A stretch of 64,000 nt of DNA from Spirochaetia bacterium (GCA_965216965.1 CBDCGX010000052.1:35195-99194), one strand, 5' to 3'; positions 9,675-64,000 are shown, counted from the stretch's first letter. Translations and numbers: made by a program. The notes: generated from the sequence alone by a model not told the origin.

Positions 9675-11301
9675 ATGATTAATATGCTATCACACATTTA
9701 TATTATTCACTATCACTTCAAAAAAGGTGGTGTAACTGATGTTGTTTTTAGAGCTTTGTCTGCATTTGATAATGCCATCACAACATTTCCTCAGTTAAAA
9801 AAAATAACTTTTGTCTGTGGTTCACCTGAAAATATAGATATATTCCGCCATATGTCCCTACATCGTATCTCAATAAATTTTATCATTGATTCCTCCATTG
9901 GATACTCTGATATAACACATAAAAAACAACAATCTCATATACACGCCATTCTTAAAAAGATTACTCAAAAAAACTCTTTATGGTGGATCCATAATCATAA
10001 TTTAGGGAAAAATGCTCTTTTTACCAAAACACTTATGAAATATCTCCAATCAGAAAAACAATTTTGTTTTCTACACTTACATGATTTTCCCGAAAGTGCC
10101 CGCTATACTAATTTAGAAAAACTCAGAAACATTATGCTTCACTACGAAACCTACATGGGAGGAACCCATGCTCTTTTAGCAGTTATCAATAAAGAAGATA
10201 CTTTTATGCTAAAAAAAGCACACTACACGCCTGCATATATTCCAAATATCATTTCTTTTAATATACAAGCAAACAAAAACGGTAATTTTTCTAATACTGT
10301 AAAAAGAACCCTTTCAAAACAAGGGGAATATCGTTTACTTAAAAACAATTACACTCTTTTTACCTATCCTGTACGCTGCATTCGACGAAAAAAACATATT
10401 AGAAGCCGCTTTAATTAGTAAGATGTATTCTCATCATACCAATACTCCATGCATGCTGGCCATTACACTCCCTGGAACTTCTAACCAAGAACGTGCTTAT
10501 TCACAAATGGTTCAACAATTATTCGAAAAAAAGATTATTTCAGGTTTTTTTAATACGGCAGCACAAAGCACTTCTTTATCATTTGAGGATATATGTAAAG
10601 CAAGCGATATTATTATAAGCAGTTCTACTCAGGAAGGATTTGGTTTTACGTATATAGGAGCCGCATCGTGGAAAACACCTCTTCTCGCTCGTAACATTCC
10701 TGTAAAGAAAGACAACTTACAAGTATTAAAAGGATGGCCAATGCACTGGTATGAAAATATATACATACCCCTTTCTCTCTTTGAAAAACAAATGGTATAT
10801 ACAATAAAACAGTCTTATAAGGAGAAAATTAATGCACAGTCTCATTTATTGAGCTCTCAAATTATACATCATCTTTTAAACTCTGTAGACACTTTATTTA
10901 ATGGGGATGCTATTGATTTTTCATTTCTTTCTATTAATATGCAAATAATGATTATTGAAATGTGTAAACACTCTCCTACTACCCATGCCAATTCTGATGC
11001 ACTTTCTCGTATTACCCACGCCAATAAGAATCTTATGAACAAAATAGATATCTTGTTGCATCATCCAGACACACCAACAACCATACAAGACATACACAAC
11101 AATGTTGAAACATATCATAGCGAAAAAAGTTTTATACAATATTTTAAGAAAGCTCTAAACCGTCTTTATAAGAATAATATTCCTCTATCAAAACCCATAG
11201 CAAAAAAGTGTGCTAATTATGCCATCGCACGCTTTGCCCAACTTCCATATTTACGATTGTTATATGATCCATATATTGATGTTGGGCCTAAAAATAACTA
11301 A
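9675..11301 (+). pseudogene. GT-B (GT4-like) glycosyltransferase split into two ORFs by a +1 frameshift
   Basis: ORF 9675-10418 (HYHFKKGGVT, HNHNLGKN, HDFPE, YPVRCIRRK) joins ORF 10423-11301 (SSTQEGFGFTYI) when one A is removed from A7 at 10388-10394. Confidence 0.8.
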
Positions 11302-42536: not shown

Positions 42537-43676
42537 TTACATATCTAAAAGATGATGATAAAACTTCCTATATTTTCCTGCAATAATCTCTGAAGAAAGA
42601 TATTTTTGCAAATGCATTCGCTCCTTTTGAGCACATGTAATATAATATTTGTAGTTTTTTAAAAAAACATGTGCCTTTTCTGCAAATAAAAGTGGTTTTT
42701 TACAATCTATAGTCCAACAAGAATGCAAGAAAATCTCTCTCATAACTGGAATATCATTTGTAATAACAGGTATTCCTTGTAGCAAAGCTTCACATGGAAC
42801 TAATCCAAATCCTTCATTGTCAGAAGGGAACAATACAACATGGGCTTCTCTCATACATTCCTTTACATTGTGAATATGTCCGAGTAATTTTACATGTGGA
42901 AGATGATTATCTTGTATATATTGTTGTATAATTTTCTTTAACGGTCCCTCTCCTGCAAATAGAAGACTTGCGTTTGCATTCTTTTTCAAAAAGTAAGAAA
43001 ACATTCTTAACACATTTATATGTCCCTTCCCTTTATAAAGCCGCGATACAACAAGAAAAACAGGCTGTTGTATACTACAATTCATTATTTTTTGTTTTTT
43101 TGCATACCTTTGCTCTTTTTCTTCTGGAACCATATGTGCATGAGTAAGTGGATTATAAATCACCTCACTATACACTGCAGAATGCTTTCTCTTTTTTTTA
43201 AGTAATTTAGCATATGTTTGCAAACAAGACTGTGAGACTGCTGTAACAGCATTAAATTTGTACAAGAGAAATTTTAAAACATATTTAGTAAACACACTAA
43301 AATAATCAAGATTATTATGAAATGTAGCACACAGCACATACTTATTTTTTGTTCTTGATCTATACGAAACCCCTGCAATACAATAAGCCCTTCCCAAATG
43401 AGCATGAACAACATCTGGATTACACTTCATTAAAAACGCTTTATATTGTAACAGTCCCTTAATAACTTCTCTTCTTTTACAATGCAAGCTATATATAGGA
43501 ATATGTAATTCTTGTAACGCCCTATATGCCTGTGTACTATTATCTACCTTTTCATGAGACAACACTATAATATCAAACGATTTTTGTAAATATAACGCTA
43601 TGTCTAAAAAGACTGTTGATACTGCACTGTCATCAAAGCAAGTAGTAAACCATATTATTTTTTTCTTTACGCTCAT
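42537..43676 (-). CDS. Glycosyltransferase family 4
   Basis: VVHAH, VSRLYKGKG, FPSDNEGFGLVPCEAL, PVITND. Confidence 0.88.
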   Translation of the reverse strand: MSVKKKIIWFTTCFDDSAVSTVFLDIALYLQKSFDIIVLSHEKVDNSTQAYRALQELHIPIYSLHCKRREVIKGLLQYKAFLMKCNPDVVHAHLGRAYCIAGVSYRSRTKNKYVLCATFHNNLDYFSVFTKYVLKFLLYKFNAVTAVSQSCLQTYAKLLKKKRKHSAVYSEVIYNPLTHAHMVPEEKEQRYAKKQKIMNCSIQQPVFLVVSRLYKGKGHINVLRMFSYFLKKNANASLLFAGEGPLKKIIQQYIQDNHLPHVKLLGHIHNVKECMREAHVVLFPSDNEGFGLVPCEALLQGIPVITNDIPVMREIFLHSCWTIDCKKPLLFAEKAHVFLKNYKYYITCAQKERMHLQKYLSSEIIAGKYRKFYHHLLDM

Positions 43677-43687
43677 AAATTTTAATA

Positions 43688-44488
43688 TTAATTATATTTG
43701 TATTTCAGATTTCTAATAGCGCGTTGCAATAATCGCGGCAAGAACTTACGCAAATATTTTTTGCTATACTCAACCGCTATATACACAGTCATTATACAAT
43801 ATTTTTTCATACTGGGATAAAACATTTTTTGTATCCTACGCCGCTCTTTCATCATTGTAGGAAAATGTGCAGTAGAATAGCCATCACTCGCTACTACGGA
43901 TATAATTGTATTGATATATAAAGCAAAATGGTTTGATTGTATGAAAGAAGCTACCTGACATGCATCTGCACATACTTTAAACGTTGTATCAAAAGGATGC
44001 TGTTTGAGCACCGTTGTTTTAAAAAACATAGCCTGATGCGATGTTGGCATGTTTTCTGGCATGCATAGAAGAGATTTAGTACTCTTTATTACTTCTTGCT
44101 CATTCCATAATTCTTTGTAGCGCCCTACAATAAGTTCATACGGTTTTTTTATTTTCACAAGAATATCTAAAAGTGTCGCAAGCGTGTTTTCTGATGCAAA
44201 GATATCTCCCGTATTTAAAAACAAACTCCATATACCTCTTGCATGCATTATCCCCTTATTCATAGCATCATATATGCCATCATCTGGCTCAGAAATATAT
44301 TGTATTATGTGATTACAAGAATGCTTTTGTACAATGTTTTTAATACCCTCAGAGCTTCCTCCATGGATTATAACACTCTCATACAAGTCTTTTTGTATAC
44401 TTTGTACACAAAAAGAATGAAGCGTTTTAAAAAGCCCTTCTTCATCGTCTTTTACAACAGTTATAATACTAAATAATAATTTATCCAT
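43688..44488 (-). CDS. Glycosyltransferase family 2 (WcaE-like)
   Basis: FSIITVV, ISEPDDGIYDAMNKG, FLNTGD, SHQAMF. Confidence 0.88.
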   Translation of the reverse strand: MDKLLFSIITVVKDDEEGLFKTLHSFCVQSIQKDLYESVIIHGGSSEGIKNIVQKHSCNHIIQYISEPDDGIYDAMNKGIMHARGIWSLFLNTGDIFASENTLATLLDILVKIKKPYELIVGRYKELWNEQEVIKSTKSLLCMPENMPTSHQAMFFKTTVLKQHPFDTTFKVCADACQVASFIQSNHFALYINTIISVVASDGYSTAHFPTMMKERRRIQKMFYPSMKKYCIMTVYIAVEYSKKYLRKFLPRLLQRAIRNLKYKYN

Positions 44489-44620
44489 GTCTTACCTTTA
44501 TTTCTGTATATACTGGTAAAAAACAAAAATACTTATCATAGTACATAATGAACAAAACATATTTTATCTTGATGTAGAAAAAAGCCTGCTCAGTTCCTTT
44601 CTAATAAACACCACGATAGT

Positions 44621-46597
44621 CTATTCTCCCTTTTTTATATACTTACATATTTCTTTATATGAGCCAGAAAAAACAATCTTACCTGACTCTATTCTATAAA
44701 TCACATCACACAAAGAAAGTGTATTAAGTCGATGTGCAACCATAATAATCGTTTTATTCTTGGGCAATTCATCAATAGTTTTTTGAACTTTTTCTTCGGT
44801 TTGCATATCCAAGTTTGAAGTTGCCTCATCAAAAAACAGTACTTGAGGATCTCTATATAATGCCCGTGCTATTCCTAATCGTTGTCTTTGTCCACCACTC
44901 AATCGTTTCCCCGAATCTCCTATATTTGTTTCCATTCCCTTAGGCATTTTCTTAATGACACTCCAAAGCTGTGAAATTTTTAGTACTTTTTCTACTTTTT
45001 TCAAAGAGATATCCTCAGGTGGTAAACCGAATGCTATATTATTAATCACAGTATCCGACATTAGCAAAGTATCCTGCGGAACATATCCTATGATTTTTTG
45101 CCAAGCTCTAGTATCTTCATAAATATTTAACTTTTCATCTATCAAGATTTCTCCTGAAAGAGGTTTTAGAAAACCCATAAGTACATGTAAAAATGTTGTT
45201 TTTCCTCCGCCTGACGTACCAATAACTCCTATTTTGGACCCCTTTGTAATATTCATTGAGATGTGCCTAAGTGCTAAAGGAGCATTATCAAAACTCATGT
45301 TTCTTCCCTTGCTATCAAAAACAGGATATCCAAAACTTATGTCTTTGATTTGAATAGTCTCTTTAAAAATAATAGGTAATATATCATCAGCTTCCTCTTC
45401 TTTGTATTGAATAGCGTTTATATATTCTTCATAAAACTCATTTACAGAAACTTGATTTCCTGCAAAAGCACCTAAATATCCCACAAGTCTAAGTGATGCT
45501 GGCATAATCTTAAAAACTGCGGCCGCAAGCACTGCCGCAGTAGTAATAAGTTCATCTGTCTTATCTGGAAACCTAATAACAATAAATACCGCATAAAATA
45601 CAAATGCAGCCACAATAAAAATTTCTAATACAATTCTAGGAATACCCGCAATTATACCTCTATATGCCCCTAGAGGCACAGTTCTATCATAAAAAGAATG
45701 GAACATCCTTAGAAAAAAAGATTCTGCCCCAAAAAGTCTACTAAATGTAAAATTATGAATTCCATGATACATGGAAATACTTTGCTTCTTAGAAAGAAGA
45801 AGTTCTATCTCTCCTAATCTTCTCAGTTCTCTATTTGTAAAATAATATGAAACAAACGCAACAATAAATATTCCCACTGCTACATATACAATCCCCGGTG
45901 TTAAAAATGTAATCCCCACACCCAACATAAACATAATAAGAAGATCATTTATTACCCCTAAAGTTCCTTGTATTATTGCAAATGTCCGCCCTGATAATGA
46001 CATTGAAAACATTGTTTGAGCTATAGTACGCCCCAGATAATATGAATATGACATGTATAACACTGCCATATAAATTTTTGTAACAAGTACTTTTACAGCA
46101 TGTGCTGTATAAAAATGAGAAATATATCCAATAACAATTTCGAAAACTATACGAAGGAGAAAAACCCCCAAAAATGCAATTCCGAAAAATATTATAAGCT
46201 GACCAGAGTTTGTAAATTCAAACATGTCATATAAATATCTTGAAATCTCAATAACAATTTGTTTTATACGTCCAGCTGAGCTTATATCATAAGAAGGGTC
46301 TATAAAACTTGCATTTTGTAAAAACAAAATAAAAGGGATAACAAGGCTTATACTCATAAGCCCCAGTAAAGACCCTACAACCATAAATATAAACAATATA
46401 GGCAGTTTTTTTCGTGCTCCTGCAATGAGAAACCATAATTGGCGTAAAGTTGTAAATGCACTTATTTTTTTTACTGTTTCTGTTAATTTTTCCTGCTCCT
46501 TAATAAATTGTTGTTCTTCTGTATCTGTTATATGCTTATCATATTTCTTTATATTTTTAAGAATTTTTTTTGTTTTTTTAAATTCATTATCTACCAT
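44621..46597 (-). CDS. ABC transporter permease/ATPase (PglK/MsbA-like glycan exporter)
   Basis: TM domain plus GTSGGGKTT, LSGGQRQRLGIARALY, FDEATS. Start moved to ATG 46597, overlapping the fcl 3' end. Confidence 0.88.
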   Translation of the reverse strand: MVDNEFKKTKKILKNIKKYDKHITDTEEQQFIKEQEKLTETVKKISAFTTLRQLWFLIAGARKKLPILFIFMVVGSLLGLMSISLVIPFILFLQNASFIDPSYDISSAGRIKQIVIEISRYLYDMFEFTNSGQLIIFFGIAFLGVFLLRIVFEIVIGYISHFYTAHAVKVLVTKIYMAVLYMSYSYYLGRTIAQTMFSMSLSGRTFAIIQGTLGVINDLLIMFMLGVGITFLTPGIVYVAVGIFIVAFVSYYFTNRELRRLGEIELLLSKKQSISMYHGIHNFTFSRLFGAESFFLRMFHSFYDRTVPLGAYRGIIAGIPRIVLEIFIVAAFVFYAVFIVIRFPDKTDELITTAAVLAAAVFKIMPASLRLVGYLGAFAGNQVSVNEFYEEYINAIQYKEEEADDILPIIFKETIQIKDISFGYPVFDSKGRNMSFDNAPLALRHISMNITKGSKIGVIGTSGGGKTTFLHVLMGFLKPLSGEILIDEKLNIYEDTRAWQKIIGYVPQDTLLMSDTVINNIAFGLPPEDISLKKVEKVLKISQLWSVIKKMPKGMETNIGDSGKRLSGGQRQRLGIARALYRDPQVLFFDEATSNLDMQTEEKVQKTIDELPKNKTIIMVAHRLNTLSLCDVIYRIESGKIVFSGSYKEICKYIKKGE

Positions 46598-47534
46598 CTT
46601 TATTTTGTTCCTCAAACCATTTATACGTTTTTTCGATTCCTTCTTCCAAAGACGTCTTAGGTATCCAACCAAGATGTTGTAATTGTGACGTATCCATACA
46701 TTTTCTTGGTGTTCCATTTGGTTTTGTAGTGTCCCATATTACTTCTCCAGAAAAACCAAGTTTTTCTTTCACAATATATGCAAGTTCTTTTATAGAAATA
46801 TCCTTCCCAATACCTACGTTTATATGTTCTTTTATCACATCCGAAGAGATATTCTTCATCAAAAAACATAGTGCATCTGCAAGATCAATAGAATATAAGA
46901 ATTCTCTTCTAGGACTTCCGTCTCCCCATAAAGTCACGGTGTCTTTTCCTTCCATTTTAGCAGTATGGATTTTTTTTATCATAGCAGAAAGAACATGGGA
47001 AGTTAAAAGGTTGAAATTATCTTTTGGTCCATACAAATTACATGGCATTGCACTTATAAAACGTGTTCCATACTGTTCATTATAATATCGGCACAATTTA
47101 ATTGCCGTAATTTTTGCGATTGCATAGGGCTCATTAGTAGGTTCTAAAGAGCCTGTTAAAAGACTATCTTCTTTAATTGGATTCGGTGCAAACTTAGGGT
47201 AAATACAACTTGATCCTAAATTGAGTAATTTTGTAACCCCTGTAAGATATGATGAATGTATAATATTTGCCGAAATAAACATATTATGATATATAAAATC
47301 TGCCCTATACGTGCTATTTGCCATAATACCACCCACCTTTGCAGCACATAGAAATACATATTTTGGTTTTTCATGTAAGAAAAAATCTTCAACCTCTTTT
47401 TGTCTTACAAGATCAAGTTCTTTGTGCGTCTTAACAATTATGTTAGCATATCCTTTCGCACGTAAATACTCAAGCAGGGCAGAACCTACTAGACCACGAT
47501 GTCCTGCAATATATATCTTATCAGTCTTTTCCAT
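46587..47534 (-). CDS. fcl: GDP-L-fucose synthase
   Basis: [43 protein letters not shown]. Confidence 0.95.
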
Positions 47535-48588
47535 TGACATATACATCCTTGTGATCTTTCAAATCAGCTTCAATCATTATATCTATAAGACGGGAAAACC
47601 CAACTTTTGCCTTCCAACCAAGCTTTTCTTTTGCTTTCGTTGCATCACCTAGAAGAAGATTAACCTCTGTCGGTCGATAATATCGCAGATCTATTTTTAT
47701 TATTGTTTTTCCCGATAACGTATTTATAGCATATTCATCAGTGCCTGTACCATGCCACTCTAATGGAATATTAAGTCTCTTAAATACTTCGTCTACAAAT
47801 TCGCGAACAGTATGCATCTCGCCCGTAGCTATTACAAAGTCATCGGGCTCATTTTGTTGCAACATAAGCCACATTGCCTCTACATAATCTTTTGCATATC
47901 CCCAATCTCTCTTTGCATCAAGATTGCCTAAATATAAACAATCTTGTAATCCACACGATATTTTTACTGCAGCCTGAGTTATTTTTCTTGTTACAAATGT
48001 TTCTCCTCGTAAGGGGCTTTCATGATTAAATAATATTCCATTACACGCAAACATAGAATAACTCTCTCTATAATTTATAGTTATCCAATATCCATATAAT
48101 TTTGCAACCCCATAAGGACTTCTAGGATAAAATGGTGTTTTCTCATTTTGTGGAATATCTTGCACAAGACCATATAATTCACTTGTAGACGCTTGATAAA
48201 ACTTTACCGTTTCTATAAGATTCAATATACGCAAGGCTTCTAAAATCCTCAAGACTCCTATAGCATCTGAATTTGCCGTATACTCAGGTGTTTCAAAGCT
48301 TACTTGTACATGGCTTTGAGCACCCAGATTATATATTTCGCTAGGTTGTACCTCTTGTATAAGGCGAATAAGGTTAGTACTATCTGTTAAATCTCCATAA
48401 TGTAAATAAAACGCATTTTTTTTATGGTATAAATCAGAATATAAGTGATCTATTCGTTCCGTATTAAAAGAGCTTGAACGTCGTTTTATTCCATGAACTT
48501 CATATCCTTTCTCAAGTAAAAATTCAGAAAGATATGCTCCATCTTGTCCTGTAACGCCAGTGATAAGTGCCTTCTTTTTATGTATCAT
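47521..48588 (-). CDS. gmd: GDP-mannose 4,6-dehydratase
   Basis: [40 protein letters not shown]. Confidence 0.97.
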
Positions 48589-48595
48589 TTTTATA

Positions 48596-49564
48596 CTACC
48601 TTATATTATTATATCTGTTTCTTATCCATTCTATGGTTTTTTTAATACCTTCTTTCAACTGAACCCGTGGAGTCCATTGTAATAAAGATATTGCTTTTCT
48701 AATATCTGGTTTACGTTGTTGCGGATCATTTTCGGGGAGTGGTTTATAGACAATATTTATTTCTGGAATATGTTTAGATATCTGTTTCGTAAGAGTATTA
48801 ATTGTTATTTCATATGGATTGCCAAGATTAATTGGTCCATGAACAGTATGATCTATGGTATTTGTATTTGCTATAGGAATGTATAAATATTTTACAATGC
48901 CCTCAACAAGGTCATCTATATAACAAAAACTTCTTGTCTGTTCTCCTTCCCCATATATAGTAAGTGGTTTCCCTTCAAGAGCTTGCGTTATAAAATTACT
49001 CATTACTCGCCCGTCATCACATGCCATATAAGGTCCATATGTATTAAAGATTCGAATAAGTTTTAGTTTTATACTTCGCAATCGAATAAAGTCAAAACAA
49101 AATGTTTCTGCCATCCTTTTTCCTTCGTCATAACAAGCCCTAGGTCCCATAAAATTTACATTGCCCCAATATTGCTCTGTTTGAGGATGTTCAAGTGGAT
49201 CTCCATACGTTTCACTTGTAGAAGCCTGAAGTAAAATAGCATTATGTTTATATGCAAGTTCTAATACATTAAGTATTCCTAGTACGTTTACTTTTCCTGT
49301 ATATATAGGGTCTTTAAGATATTGTTTAGGACTCGCAGGACATGCAAAATTGCATATAGCATCTATTTTCTCATTAATATCTAAAGGTTTTATAATATCA
49401 TGCTCAACAAATGAGAAATTCTTATTCTTATGCAATTCTTCCATGTTTTGAGGAGAACTACAGTAAAAATTATCAATGCCAATAATTGTATGCCCATCAC
49501 AAAGAAGTTTTTTACAAAGATTTACGCCTATAAATCCTGCCGATCCTGTTATAATAATTTTCAT
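48596..49564 (-). CDS. UDP-glucuronic acid decarboxylase (UDP-xylose synthase family)
   Basis: [46 protein letters not shown]. Confidence 0.9.
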
Positions 49565-49611: not shown

Positions 49612-51138
49612 TTGAAAGATTATAAAACTATTACATTCCTTTTTATTTGCACACTTCTTTTTCCAATACTTACCTTTGGACAAGAAACAAAAAAACTCCC
49701 ACAAGCCATAACTCCTTCTAATAAGGCCATAGACAATGATGTATATATCATTACAGATGTTAAATATGTAATAAAAGGTCTCGTGCTTAAAAGTGCTTTA
49801 GAGGAAAAATTACGATTTGCAACAGGCACAAAAAAATTCTATTCTCGAGAAACATTTATAAATTACTTAGAAGATAAAACTGCAAAATTAAAAAACATCA
49901 ATCAAATTGAAAACATATCAACCATAACATACGACTATACGTGGAATAAAGAAAAACACCAATTTGAAATAATACTTACTATATTTGTATTTGCAAAGAA
50001 TACATTCTTAATTATTCCATATCCTAAATATTCTGACAATACTGGGTTTGAGCTAAGCCTAAAGGGGAAAGATGAAAATTTTATAGGGTCACTTGAACTT
50101 TTACATTTCAACCTCAATTACACCCTAGATAGTTCAAATAGAAATGGAATGAACACCGGCGTTGGCTTTAGATACCCCTTGCAATATAAAGAAAACCACA
50201 TATTTAAACCTGGAATAGAAGAATCGCTCTCTTATCGTGAAGATAACTCACTACAAAACATTTCTGGACTCCTTTTTACCTATTCATATCTTATAAACCA
50301 TATAGCAGTAAATCTTAATACAAATCAAAAATTCATTACTACTACAGACACGGGGCAATCTAGCAAGCCAAAATATACACGCTCAAGAACAGAACTAAGC
50401 CTAGCCCCTTCTTTTACTCTTAATAAAAATATTATTCCTATAATAAGCTCTTTTATATATAATACCTCTTTATATACAAATATAGAAACAGCGATAACTC
50501 CCAATGACCCCAAACCACAAGATAGATACAAATTAGATACAGGGTTTACTCATTCCCTTGATTTTGGTCGCATAGACTGGATAGAAAATTTCCGTATGGG
50601 TGTTTTTATCTCAATAGGAAACAAAAACAATTATTCATTTAAAGACCGCGGATGGATAAATTCTATTTATTTAGAAACAAAATTTCATGTTGCAATTAAA
50701 GGCTTCATGGGTATTAATACCCGCTTTTATGTTATTCACAATTTTATTACTTATGCAGAACCAAAAAAAGGAAACGACAAGGGAACTTCTATTGGAAATA
50801 GAATTCGTGGTGTACTCGACAATAATTTTACTAATGCTAACACAGGATTGGCTATAAATACAGAAGTTATGTTCAAATTATTCAGAATTCCTTATATAGC
50901 TCAATTTCAAGGCGGTCTCTTTTTTGATGTAGGTGTACGAAAAAGAGTAAATACTGATTTTAATGTTTATAATGATGTGAAATATACTGCTGGCATTCAA
51001 GGTATTGCGTTTCAAATCTTTAATACAAGCATAAATATGCGTCTTACCTACGGTATTGATATCGGACGTGCCATAAAAGAGCACCGACTTTCCTTTTCTA
51101 ATAGAGAAATAGTATTTGCAACGTCATTGTTTTATTAA
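49612..51138 (+). CDS. Putative outer-membrane beta-barrel protein with POTRA-like N-terminus
   Basis: Signal peptide, IIPYPKYSDNTG...ENFIGS, alternating aromatic strands, C-terminal FATSLFY; TTG start. Confidence 0.55.
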   Translation: MKDYKTITFLFICTLLFPILTFGQETKKLPQAITPSNKAIDNDVYIITDVKYVIKGLVLKSALEEKLRFATGTKKFYSRETFINYLEDKTAKLKNINQIENISTITYDYTWNKEKHQFEIILTIFVFAKNTFLIIPYPKYSDNTGFELSLKGKDENFIGSLELLHFNLNYTLDSSNRNGMNTGVGFRYPLQYKENHIFKPGIEESLSYREDNSLQNISGLLFTYSYLINHIAVNLNTNQKFITTTDTGQSSKPKYTRSRTELSLAPSFTLNKNIIPIISSFIYNTSLYTNIETAITPNDPKPQDRYKLDTGFTHSLDFGRIDWIENFRMGVFISIGNKNNYSFKDRGWINSIYLETKFHVAIKGFMGINTRFYVIHNFITYAEPKKGNDKGTSIGNRIRGVLDNNFTNANTGLAINTEVMFKLFRIPYIAQFQGGLFFDVGVRKRVNTDFNVYNDVKYTAGIQGIAFQIFNTSINMRLTYGIDIGRAIKEHRLSFSNREIVFATSLFY

Positions 51139-60663: not shown

Positions 60664-62538
60664 CTATAAAGTTTTGCTTGTTTTTTTATTTACATGAAAC
60701 ATAAGTACGGTAAGATCAGATTGTCTTACCCCTGATATTTTAGACGCCTGTTGTAGTGTTGCAGGTTTTATACTTGAAAGTTTTTCTCTCCCTTCAGAAG
60801 AAATTCCCATAACATTCTTATAATTAAAATCTCGTCCCAAAACAATTGTTTCTTTCTTTTTCATTTTCAAAATCTCTTTTTGTTGCCTATTTATGTATCC
60901 TTCATATTTCACTTCAACTTCAACGTGATGAAGATCCTCCTTTTCGTATGAATTATCTATTAAAGACTCGTCAAAGTGTGATATCTCCTGCAATGTAAAC
61001 TTCTGAGTTTTCAAAACCTGTAAGAAATTCTTTCCTGCAAAAGGTGCAAGTTCTGAAAATCTTTTTATGTCATCTTTTTTTATAGAACGTTGTGAAAGTA
61101 TTTTTTTTAATTTCCCTATTGATTCTTTTTTTCTATTCATCTTATCTACTTTATCTTTTGACACCAACCCTATCTTGTATCCAATATCCATAAGTCGTAT
61201 ATCAGACGTGTTGTGTCGTAAATTCATACGATGCTCTGCACGAGATGTAAACATACGATACGGTTCTTTTGTGCCCATAGTAATTAAATCATCTATGAGA
61301 ACGCCTATATATGCTTCGCTTCGACTCAAAATAAGTGGGTCTTTTTTCTCTAAATAACATATAGCATTTATTCCCGCAATAAGCCCCTGAGCTGCTGCTT
61401 CTTCATATCCCGATGTGCCATTTATTTGTCCCGCCAAAAACAAACCCGAAAGCATTTTAGACTCAAGCGATGCATATAGTTGAGAAGGATCACAATAATC
61501 ATATTCAACGGCATAGCCTGGACGCATTATTTCCGCGTGTTCTAATCCACGTATAGAACGAATAAACATCGCTTGAATACTCTCAGGCAACGAGGTAGAA
61601 AGCCCATTAAGGTACATTTCTTGCGTAGAAAGCCCTTCTGGCTCTATAAAAATTTGATGCCGTTCTCGATCTGAAAATTTTTTTACCTTATCTTCAATTG
61701 ACGGACAATATCTTGGACCAACTCCTGCTATTTTCCCCGAATACGCCGAAGAGCGGTGTATATTCTGTAATATTATTGAGTGAGTAGTATCATTTGTATA
61801 TGTAATATAGCATGCAACTTGTTCTCTCTGAAAATTCTCCTGAGAAAAAGAAAAAGGACATATCTCATTATCACCAAAAAGTAAATTCACCTTAGAAAAA
61901 TCTATAGAACGTCTATGTATACGTGCAGGAGTTCCTGTTTTAAGTCTTCCCAGTTGAAGTCCAATTTTTTTAAGAGATTTATCAAGATAATGTACAGCAG
62001 GCTCTGCAAGCCTTCCTGCACTCGTACTATATTCTCCTATAAACACTTTTCCATTAAGAAAAGTCCCCATAGTAAGCACTATTACTTTTGCCTTATACGT
62101 TTTTCCACATTCTGTTATTATTCCCGTCGCTTTTTTTGACATATTTGATGTAGCACCCAAATACATAATTTCAGATACAGTGCCTTGTATAAGATAAATG
62201 TTTTTTTCATTCTCTATTGTTTTTTTTGCTTCTATTTGGTAGGCAAGCTTATCTGCTTGTGCTCTTGGAGCTTGTACAGAGGGCCCCTTGCTTCTATTTA
62301 AAATACGAAATTGTATCATTGTCTTATCAATAAGAGTTCCCATTTCTCCACCAAGAGCATCTATTTCACGAACCATATTTCCTTTAGCAAGACCTCCAAT
62401 AGCAGGATTACATGAAAGCTTGCCTATTGTATCTAAGTTCTGCGTTATAAGTGCTGTTATAAATCCCTTACGTGCTAAGGCAAGCGACGCTTCAATTCCC
62501 GCATGTCCTCCACCAATTACAATTGCATCAAAATCCAT
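60664..62538 (-). CDS. mnmG: tRNA U34 carboxymethylaminomethyl modification enzyme
   Basis: [51 protein letters not shown]. Confidence 0.97.
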
Positions 62539-62648: not shown

Positions 62649-62845
62649 ATGATAATAATCAATATACTGGTGGTTTTTGTAACCCAATGTTTCAATATGC
62701 TTGTGGCTATGCACTCTCTCAAAAAAACAATGATATGTTAAAATTAGATACTACTTTATTATTCCTACACCAGTAATTAAGAATATAAACTCAAAGAATT
62801 TCGTATTGATTTTGTACTATTCCAAAAAATTGGTTTGAAAATTAA
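62649..62845 (+). pseudogene. Collapsed remnant of a GT11 fucosyltransferase
   Basis: Matches the 5' end of 62886-63752 (with a frameshift and substitutions) joined directly to its last codons (TTCCAAAAAATTGGTTTGAAAATTAA). Confidence 0.9.
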
Positions 62846-62885
62846 CAATTAATGTTTATAATTAAATAGGAAGCTACTTGAACTC

Positions 62886-63752
62886 ATGATAATAGTACAT
62901 ATATGCGGTGGTCTTGGTAACCAAATGTTTCAATATGCCTGTGGCTATGCACTCTCTCAAAAAAATAATGATACGTTAAAATTGGATACTACTTACTTTT
63001 GTTATAGTGATCTCCGAAAATATGAACTCAAAGAATTTCGTATTGATGTTCCTTTTGCTTCGGAGGAAGAAATTATAGAATTACAATATGAATATGAAAC
63101 TATTTTTGCTACAATTAAACGAAAAATAACCAGAAAAAAAAGAAAACTCTCACGCTATTACTACCAAGAACCTCATTTTCATTTTGATAAAAACATACAC
63201 ACTCTTTCGGGAAACATTTACTTAAAGGGATATTGGCAGTGTGAGAAATATTTTCTTGTATATAAACACGACCTTTTAACTCATTTTACTTTAAAAAACA
63301 AACTTTCCAAGAAAAGTGAAGAATATAAAAAAATCATACGCAGTACACAATCCATTAGTATTCATATAAGAAGAGGCGATTACGTAACCCTTTCCTCTGT
63401 TTACAAACAATATAATTTAAAATACTATAAAACCTCCATAACGCATATAGAATCAAAAATCAGAAATCCTCACTATTTTATTTTTAGCGATGATTTAGAA
63501 TGGACAAAAAAATACCTCAATTTTATAAAAAACAGTACCTTTATAGAGCTGGATACAACCACTCCTGATAGTGAAGAAATATATTTAATGAGTATATGCA
63601 AGCACAATATCACTGCTAACAGCACATTTAGCTGGTGGGGTGCATGGCTTAATCAGAATCCAAATAAAATAGTTATTGCTCCCCAAAAATGGTTTTGTGA
63701 CACTACTATAAATACAAAAGATATTATTCCAAAAAATTGGTTTAAAAATTAA
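62886..63752 (+). CDS. Alpha-1,2-fucosyltransferase (GT11)
   Basis: GGLGNQMFQYA, GYWQCEKYF, HIRRGDY, IFSDD, NSTFSWWGAWL, IAPQKWF. Confidence 0.93.
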   Translation: MIIVHICGGLGNQMFQYACGYALSQKNNDTLKLDTTYFCYSDLRKYELKEFRIDVPFASEEEIIELQYEYETIFATIKRKITRKKRKLSRYYYQEPHFHFDKNIHTLSGNIYLKGYWQCEKYFLVYKHDLLTHFTLKNKLSKKSEEYKKIIRSTQSISIHIRRGDYVTLSSVYKQYNLKYYKTSITHIESKIRNPHYFIFSDDLEWTKKYLNFIKNSTFIELDTTTPDSEEIYLMSICKHNITANSTFSWWGAWLNQNPNKIVIAPQKWFCDTTINTKDIIPKNWFKN

Positions 63753-63792
63753 TAATTAATGTTTATAATTAGATGAGGAACTACTTGAACTC

Positions 63793-64000
63793 ATGATAAT
63801 AGTACATATATGCGGTGGTCTTGGTAACCAAATGTTTCAATATGCCTGTGGCTATGCACTCTCTCAAAAAAATAATGATACGTTAAAATTAGATACTACT
63901 TACTTTTATTATAGTGATTACCGAAAATATGAACTCAAAGAATTTCGTATTGATGTTCCTTTTGCTTCGGAGGAAGAAATTATAGAATTACAATATGAAT
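63793..64000 (+). CDS. Second GT11 fucosyltransferase copy (partial, runs off window)
   Basis: Near-identical to the previous gene, 907 bp downstream; differs at YFYYSDYRKY versus YFCYSDLRKY. Confidence 0.9.
   Translation, partial: MIIVHICGGLGNQMFQYACGYALSQKNNDTLKLDTTYFYYSDYRKYELKEFRIDVPFASEEEIIELQYE

Follow-up and report, generated by a model that had tools for sequence, protein, structure and literature searches.

The DNA analysed here is a stretch of 64,000 nucleotides (the window) from an uncultured member of the Spirochaetia, corresponding to nucleotides 35195-99194 of a 135,970-bp contig. All coordinates below use the window numbering unless the contig is named. The genome, in 58 contigs and 1.69 Mb, is a metagenome bin of low coverage, with a GC content of 33% and a rated completeness of 88%. 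At the end of the window lie two intact genes of the GT11 alpha-1,2-fucosyltransferase family, preceded by the remnant of another copy. They are arranged head to tail between mnmG (60664-62538) and an Asp/Glu-racemase gene. A preliminary description of the DNA had read the locus as a tandem, diversifying array of such genes and as a candidate device for antigenic variation. The features are the following.

62649..62813, plus strand: remnant, 5' piece, equivalent to about codons 1-55 of the GT11 genes; 83% nucleotide identity to both intact copies
62814..62845, plus strand: remnant, 3' piece, end of a copy-1-type gene (~10 final codons with the stop), fused directly to the 5' piece
62846..62885, plus strand: spacer 1, 40 nt, carrying a putative -10 box and a purine-rich ribosome-site candidate, AGGAAG
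62886..63752, plus strand: copy 1, intact GT11 gene, 288 aa, Pfam PF01531
63363..63383, plus strand: motif I of copy 1, H160-I-R-R-G-D-Y166, the GDP-fucose-binding motif of GT11, placed by alignment
63384..63437, plus strand: hyper-divergent loop of copy 1, codons 167-184, defined by column counts in the alignment
63753..63792, plus strand: spacer 2, 40 nt, carrying a putative -10 box and a ribosome-site candidate, GAGGAA
63793..64000 in the window, true end 64689 (contig 98987-99883), plus strand: copy 2, intact GT11 gene, 298 aa, Pfam PF01531

The three units described earlier, a collapsed remnant, a full gene and a further copy, are confirmed by coordinates and alignments. Copy 2 starts at 63793, exactly 907 bp after the start of copy 1, and the two spacers are near-identical, as had been stated. 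A direct-repeat search found repeats of 300 nt with 96% and 90% identity at spacings of 907 and 937 nt, and a MAFFT alignment confirmed the repeat; Tandem Repeats Finder, with a longest period of 500, reported nothing at the locus. Reading the contig beyond the window shows that copy 2 is the last copy, and that the series ends against the racemase gene, which is convergent and lies 40 nt past copy 2, with sensor and transporter genes beyond. A six-frame search of the 1.69-Mb genome gave no GT11 match besides the two genes and the remnant. An array that runs on past the window is therefore not upheld: the locus consists of two intact genes and one dead remnant, and is an ordinary local duplication, not a many-copy variation system.

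The remnant retains about 200 nt of gene, with ~690 bp absent from the middle. Its 5' piece has a 1-nt deletion near the start, which causes a frameshift, and its other changes are scattered. The longest open reading frames (ORFs) are of 30 and 53 aa, in two frames, and the tblastn match is 74% across residues 7-44, with one stop. The 3' piece plus spacer 1 aligns with the 3' end of copy 1 plus spacer 2 at 92% identity. The presence of this dead, internally deleted copy bears out the birth and death of genes that the preliminary description had proposed. The GT11 genes have a GC content of 29.5%, against 33.6% for the contig. Two short adenine runs are found in copy 1, A7 (CAAAAAAAT) at 62958-62966 and A8 (GAAAAAAAAG) at 63124-63136, and at the same places in copy 2; the A7 run is retained in the remnant.

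Judged by their sequences, both genes are members of the GT11 alpha-1,2-fucosyltransferase family, as had been recognised. Copy 1 matches Pfam PF01531 with 109.7 bits (E 2e-31; residues 1-286 on profile positions 1-295 of 298) and copy 2 with 121.9 bits, the cut-off being 23.9. Motif I, H160-I-R162-R163-G-D165-Y, is found in both copies, and H160, R162 and R163 are invariant in an alignment of 69 sequences of the subfamily. Indeed, both copies retain every invariant column of this alignment, and the N-terminal GGLGNQMFQYA, the FSDD and the C-terminal NSTFSWWG.WLN blocks are intact in each. The HxRRxD motif has been assigned to GDP-fucose binding in GT11 enzymes, its R and D being critical according to work on WbsJ cited there (PMC8899238). 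Both proteins should use GDP-L-fucose, and we infer their activity and linkage. The reaction expected of this family is the transfer of L-fucose from GDP-fucose, in alpha-1,2 linkage, to a galactoside or other acceptor, and the part of it that is seen in the genome is the donor pathway.

AlphaFold2 generates confident models for both proteins (copy 1, pLDDT 93.5 and pTM 0.92; copy 2, pLDDT 93.4 and pTM 0.91). A Foldseek search with the copy 2 model gave NodZ, POFUT1, FUT8 and AtFUT1 as the best matches, with a probability of 1.0 and a TM score of ~0.5. These are matches at the superfamily level only, and the predicted fold is the GT-B fold of the fucosyltransferase superfamily. A sequence search of a copy of the PDB found no GT11 structure, and for this reason the loop that follows motif I is not mappable residue by residue to a solved donor site.

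The two copies are 88% identical at the amino acid level. Across the 208 bp of copy 2 that lie in the window there are four nucleotide differences, as described earlier: a synonymous change in codon 33 (TTG/TTA), C39Y in codon 39 (TGT/TAT), and L43Y in codon 43 (CTC/TAC, two bases). The copies differ, and the earlier statement that they are not an exact assembly duplicate is correct. Divergence was calculated by the Nei-Gojobori method for each codon segment, from these two sequences only, with the following results.

Codons 1-166: dS 0.09, dN/dS 0.19
Codons 167-194 (loop): pS 0.82, pN 0.44; near saturation, dN/dS not computable
Codons 195-279: dS 0.175, dN/dS 0.22
Codons 280-298 (C-terminus, 19 codons): pS 0.68, dN/dS 0.21, with dS near saturation

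It is clear that the differences are clustered (variance-to-mean ratio 4.3), and the longest identical run between the copies is 165 nt (permutation p < 0.001). The synonymous sites form the same blocks as the other sites, and therefore the pattern is one of history and not of constraint. The recombination between copies that had been suggested is supported by this mosaic, which most likely represents old paralogues homogenised by gene conversion, save for the loop and the last 19 codons. Alternatively, the paralogues may be young, and foreign DNA may have taken the place of two of their segments. Nothing in these comparisons indicates diversifying selection. The value of dN/dS is 0.28 over the gene minus the loop, which suggests purifying selection there, and the four differences from which diversification had been proposed are too few to test it. 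Nor is the patch around C39 and L43 the variable one: the truly divergent patch is found elsewhere, in codons 167-194, beside the donor motif.

The most unusual part of the two proteins is this loop, and it is the only unusual feature of the locus. Between RRGDY and an invariant YY, the loop has one fixed length in 67/67 other members of the subfamily. Its consensus is N..TN.vHG.C, in which the H, G and C are each conserved in 65-66 of 69 sequences. Copy 2 departs from this by an insertion of 7 aa found in no other member and by an H>F substitution. Copy 1 departs from it by a deletion of 3 aa, also unique, together with H>Y, G>K and C>Y, the replacements reading Y, K and Q..Y. The loop is also the sole stretch of low confidence in both AlphaFold2 models. 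A frameshift origin for the loop of copy 1 was considered and rejected, the other two frames, read by eye, giving stops or unrelated residues. A recent review of fucosyltransferases contains nothing on the loop in bacterial GT11 (PMC12717137, 2025). Because the loop directly follows the strand that bears the donor-binding arginines, altered handling of donor or acceptor is plausible, and equally so a loss of function in copy 1; because a loop that borders the donor/acceptor cleft and is otherwise of fixed length has been remodelled differently in each copy, the two enzymes may well differ in this respect.

The copies may also be expressed separately. In spacer 1 there is a promoter-like site, TTGAAA-16-TATAAT at 62835-62862, with 11/12 matches in a promoter scan, this being a match to the consensus only. 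Its -35 element, TTGAAA (62835-62840), lies within the last codons of the remnant, and its -10 element, TATAAT, is at 62857-62862. Spacer 2 has an equivalent site, TTTAAA-17-TATAAT at 63741-63769, with 10/12 matches, whose -35 element (TTTAAA, 63741-63746) lies within the last codons of copy 1 and whose -10 element is at 63764-63769. These are the two best sigma-70-like matches of the region, and their positions in the two spacers correspond; the total of such matches is no more than expected by chance. Promoter-like site and start codon are thus separate for the two copies, and no terminator-like site was found in the region.

A tandem pair in a metagenome bin invites the question of whether the arrangement is real. 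Only one public sequencing run, X1, holds the organism, at a depth of ~4x; the runs X2-X4 contain <10% of its words or none. X1 was checked by means of independently built Logan contigs, which come from a de Bruijn assembly, and the following pieces cover the locus.

49.9-kb contig: remnant and spacer 1, stopping 18 nt into the gene; depth 4.37
148-nt piece, 63663-63810, zero mismatches: copy 1 3' end, spacer 2 and copy 2 start; depth 2.4
Paired variant pieces where the copies differ: depth 2.6-3.0 each
9.8-kb contig: from the distinctive 3' end of copy 2 downstream; depth 4.1

Pieces common to both copies have a depth of 4.7. The run thus contains two different junctions of gene end, spacer and gene start, which are impossible from a single-gene locus, and we conclude that the tandem structure exists in the DNA of X1. 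The variant arms are all of equal depth, which matches that of the junction between copy 1 and copy 2, and this argues for one fixed structure. The first 353 nt of the gene are present only in the copy 2 version, as would be expected if contig building collapses small variants. No insertions, deletions, length variants or alternative joints were seen at the locus in these contigs, at a depth of ~4x and from contigs that drop rare variants. A larger number of copies, collapsed into two, was rejected, the copy-specific depth lying below that of the flanks and not above it.

The genes for the synthesis of the sugar donor are found in the same window, 14 kb upstream of the GT11 genes, within a compact glycan cluster on the minus strand (42537-49564). 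The cluster comprises the five genes listed below and a further SDR epimerase/dehydratase.

42537-43676, minus strand: GT4 glycosyltransferase; NCBIfam match below the equivalog cut-off, family level only
43688-44488, minus strand: WcaE-like GT2; NCBIfam match below the equivalog cut-off, family level only
44621-46717, minus strand: PglK/MsbA-like ABC flippase; NCBIfam match below the equivalog cut-off, family level only
46587..47546, minus strand: fcl, GDP-L-fucose synthase, the second step; NF047922, 443.8 bits (E 3.5e-133), short of the strict cut-off, which is 500
47521..48588, minus strand: gmd, GDP-mannose 4,6-dehydratase, the first step to GDP-L-fucose; TIGR01472, 600 bits against a cut-off of 415

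The longest ORFs overlap, by 131 nt between the flippase and fcl (46587-46717) and by 26 nt between fcl and gmd (47521-47546), and here the genes probably start further downstream, or else their translation is coupled. A 508-aa ORF (49612-51138), divergent to the cluster, has no NCBIfam match. A search of the genome for the salvage enzyme Fkp/fucose pyrophosphorylase (PF07959) gave no match, and the donor would thus be supplied by gmd and fcl. LpxC (PF03331) likewise has no match in this 88%-complete genome, from which the organism is probably without lipid A. Treponema and Borrelia are also without lipid A. Since lipid A is probably absent, the product that carries the fucose is probably not an O-antigen, and the target is likely to be a surface glycan other than lipopolysaccharide (LPS).

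The MnmG protein is 69-70% identical to that of the nearest genomic relatives, and its further matches are to spirochaetes. One match (61% identity) is recorded under the name of the scallop Ylistrum balloti; it presumably derives from a spirochaete within an assembly made from a bivalve, and may indicate that this lineage has relatives in marine invertebrates. Around mnmG, the only gene in common with the five nearest genomes is mnmG itself, and the GT11 genes of these genomes are only 30-43% identical to the copies described here. The best matches in a database of 5.8 billion proteins, at 50-56% identity, belong to scattered phyla. As the copies are 88% alike and no more than 56% identical to anything else, the duplication took place within this lineage, and it probably followed the horizontal acquisition of the gene. 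Among 80 species-representative loci with the nearest homologues, one has a second GT11 gene within 6 kb. Glycosyltransferase paralogues in tandem are nothing unusual, a pair that is young and undergoing conversion being simply rarer.

In a spirochaete of the same family (genome G004) there are also two adjacent GT11-like genes on the same strand (locus L110, 4782-6080 and 6181-7428). In contrast to the pair described here, they encode proteins of 432 and 415 aa, which are only 30-34% identical to our copies. They adjoin genes for cytidylyltransferase-like, CDP-alcohol phosphatidyltransferase-like and nucleotidyltransferase proteins. On the basis of size, low identity and different neighbours, the G004 pair represents a separate and older event.

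Characterised bacterial GT11 enzymes include Tp2FT of Treponema primitia, Te2FT/Ts2FT of Thermosynechococcus, WbsJ, WbgL, WbnK, WbwK and WbiQ of E. coli, and FutC of H. pylori (PMC8899238). The two proteins resemble these in their Pfam family, their length (~290-300 aa), the GGLGNQ.FQYA and NS.FSWW blocks and the predicted GT-B fold, and in being accompanied in the genome by genes for GDP-fucose synthesis. The resemblance to Tp2FT extends to the residue numbers of motif I, with H160, R162, R163 and D165 at the same positions. They differ in being no more than 56% identical to any relative and in the unique remodelling of the loop after motif I, and also in their setting, the genes lying outside the glycan cluster, amid housekeeping genes, as a recent tandem pair.

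Two further systems are worth comparing. In futC of H. pylori and other phase-variable glycosyltransferase genes, expression is switched by slipped-strand events at homopolymer tracts. Like futC, the genes described here encode a fucosyltransferase that possibly varies a surface epitope, and they have short A7/A8 runs inside both copies. Unlike futC, they contain no long poly-C or poly-G tract, there is no frameshifted copy except the dead remnant, and variation, if there is any, would come about through recombination between copies. In multigene families, tandem paralogues may be homogenised by conversion except in the segments that determine specificity. The present pair is similar, in that long identical tracts alternate with short, synonymously saturated segments, one of them beside the active site; it is dissimilar in that there are only two sequences here, and that the loop is only a candidate for a role in specificity.

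On the basis of these observations, we consider it rather probable that the locus holds a separately promoted pair of GT11 paralogues, produced by duplication and conversion within the lineage and functionally diverged in the loop, in a deep-branching uncultured spirochaete that is probably without LPS. The gene would have been duplicated in tandem after its probable horizontal arrival, and gene conversion would then hold most of its length near-identical. The loop after HxRRGDY and the 19 C-terminal codons would have escaped conversion and be anciently divergent. Both proteins would take the GDP-L-fucose made by gmd and fcl, and transfer fucose to a surface glycan, lipid-linked or secreted, that the GT4, the GT2 and the PglK-like flippase would build. 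The two enzymes may have become sub- or neofunctionalised, copy 1 being the more aberrant.

Several observations weigh against this proposal. The copy-specific pieces in X1, at a depth of 2.4-3.0, reach only ~0.6 of the depth of the single-copy flanks (4.1-4.4), which is below the expectation for a genome with both copies in every cell; this may be due to AT bias, to noise at 4x or to real heterogeneity in copy number. The 14 kb that separate the GT11 genes from the glycan cluster make the link between them an indirect one. Two sequences alone do not separate gene conversion from an introduction of foreign DNA in place of the loop and 3' end, and conversion resets divergence, with the result that a low dN/dS in converted tracts is weakly informative on the present constraint on each copy. 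Finally, copy 1 is without three nearly invariant residues of the loop, and its pLDDT is <50 at residues 168-176, and it may be inactive instead of differently specific.

The last point leads to a different account of the locus, in which birth and death continue: copy 2 is functional, and copy 1, although its frame is open, has lost its function through damage to the loop beside the donor site and is decaying into a second remnant. Of the 69 members, none but copy 1 has lost all three of H173, G174 and C176, and the 3-aa deletion is likewise unique to it; in its model no stretch other than the loop has pLDDT <50, its Pfam score is below that of copy 2 (109.7 vs 121.9 bits), and the upstream remnant demonstrates that copies do die here. 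However, a frame of 288 codons remains intact in a gene of 29.5% GC, with its own promoter-like site and ribosome-site candidate and with all other motifs intact. Outside the loop dN/dS is 0.2-0.3, though conversion from copy 2 could produce that, and the loop of copy 2 is itself aberrant (7-aa insertion, H>F), so that a change in the loop alone is no proof of death. We regard this account as unlikely, though worth keeping in mind. Far less credible is an artefact, in which a metagenome assembler strung two strain alleles of one gene in tandem. The bin is of low coverage, in 58 contigs and 88% complete; the depth per copy is about half to 0.6 of the flank and that of the shared pieces about equal to it, as two alleles would give; and none of the X1 contigs carries the 5' variants specific to copy 1. 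But this absence is what bubble-popping in contig building is expected to cause, and X1 holds two distinct junctions, remnant to spacer 1 in the 49.9-kb contig and copy 1 end to spacer 2 in the 148-nt contig, the second of which a single-gene locus cannot yield. The 3' ends of the genes also differ, with a spacer after one and the racemase flank after the other, and the remnant itself proves a history of tandem copies. An artefact thus seems hardly probable at all.

The remaining account is the one put forward in the preliminary description, a recombining cassette system in which unequal crossing-over and conversion vary copy number and chimeras from cell to cell and so change a fucosylated epitope, for antigenic variation or host mimicry. 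The mosaic identity indicates that the copies exchange sequence, the remnant represents a deletion by recombination, the copy-specific depth in X1 of ~0.6 of the flank could mean that some cells carry fewer copies, and both genes contain A7 and A8 runs. Elsewhere in the window a glycosyltransferase gene appears to be split into two ORFs on the plus strand, 9675-10418 and 10423-11301, 4 nt apart, which may reflect either phase variation or a homopolymer error. Nevertheless, besides the remnant the genome contains just two complete genes, both of which have a promoter-like site and a start of their own, and no bank of silent cassettes. There is no recombinase among the neighbours (mnmG, racemase, sensor protein and transporters), no invertible promoter, no repeat tract beyond A8, and no inverted repeat at the locus that is both >17 nt and >82% complementary. 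The arms of equal depth in X1, at the depth of the junction, fit a fixed two-copy structure better than a mixture; the contigs contain no length variants or alternative joints; and dN/dS is <1. The organism is held by a single sample, in which variation between populations is not visible. An antigenic-variation device is thus not borne out, and we consider it very unlikely. Only a small chance can be given, likewise, to an elaboration of the idea in which the loop is a specificity switch: selection would keep two incompatible versions apart and conversion homogenise the remainder, unequal crossing-over would give cells with one, two or chimeric genes, and in this way a fucosylated epitope on the surface of a host-associated spirochaete that is without LPS would change, through recombination and not through slipped-strand switching.

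The reading we prefer is thus a duplicated pair of paralogues, homogenised by conversion outside the loop and the C-terminus and probably diverged in function. The locus shows on a small scale how genes are duplicated, converted and lost, and it contributes two divergent GT11 sequences of a spirochaete lineage about which little is known. GT11 enzymes are used to produce fucosylated oligosaccharides. If both copies are active, a comparison of the two would reveal the role of the loop, which would be useful given that the searched copy of the PDB holds no GT11 structure.

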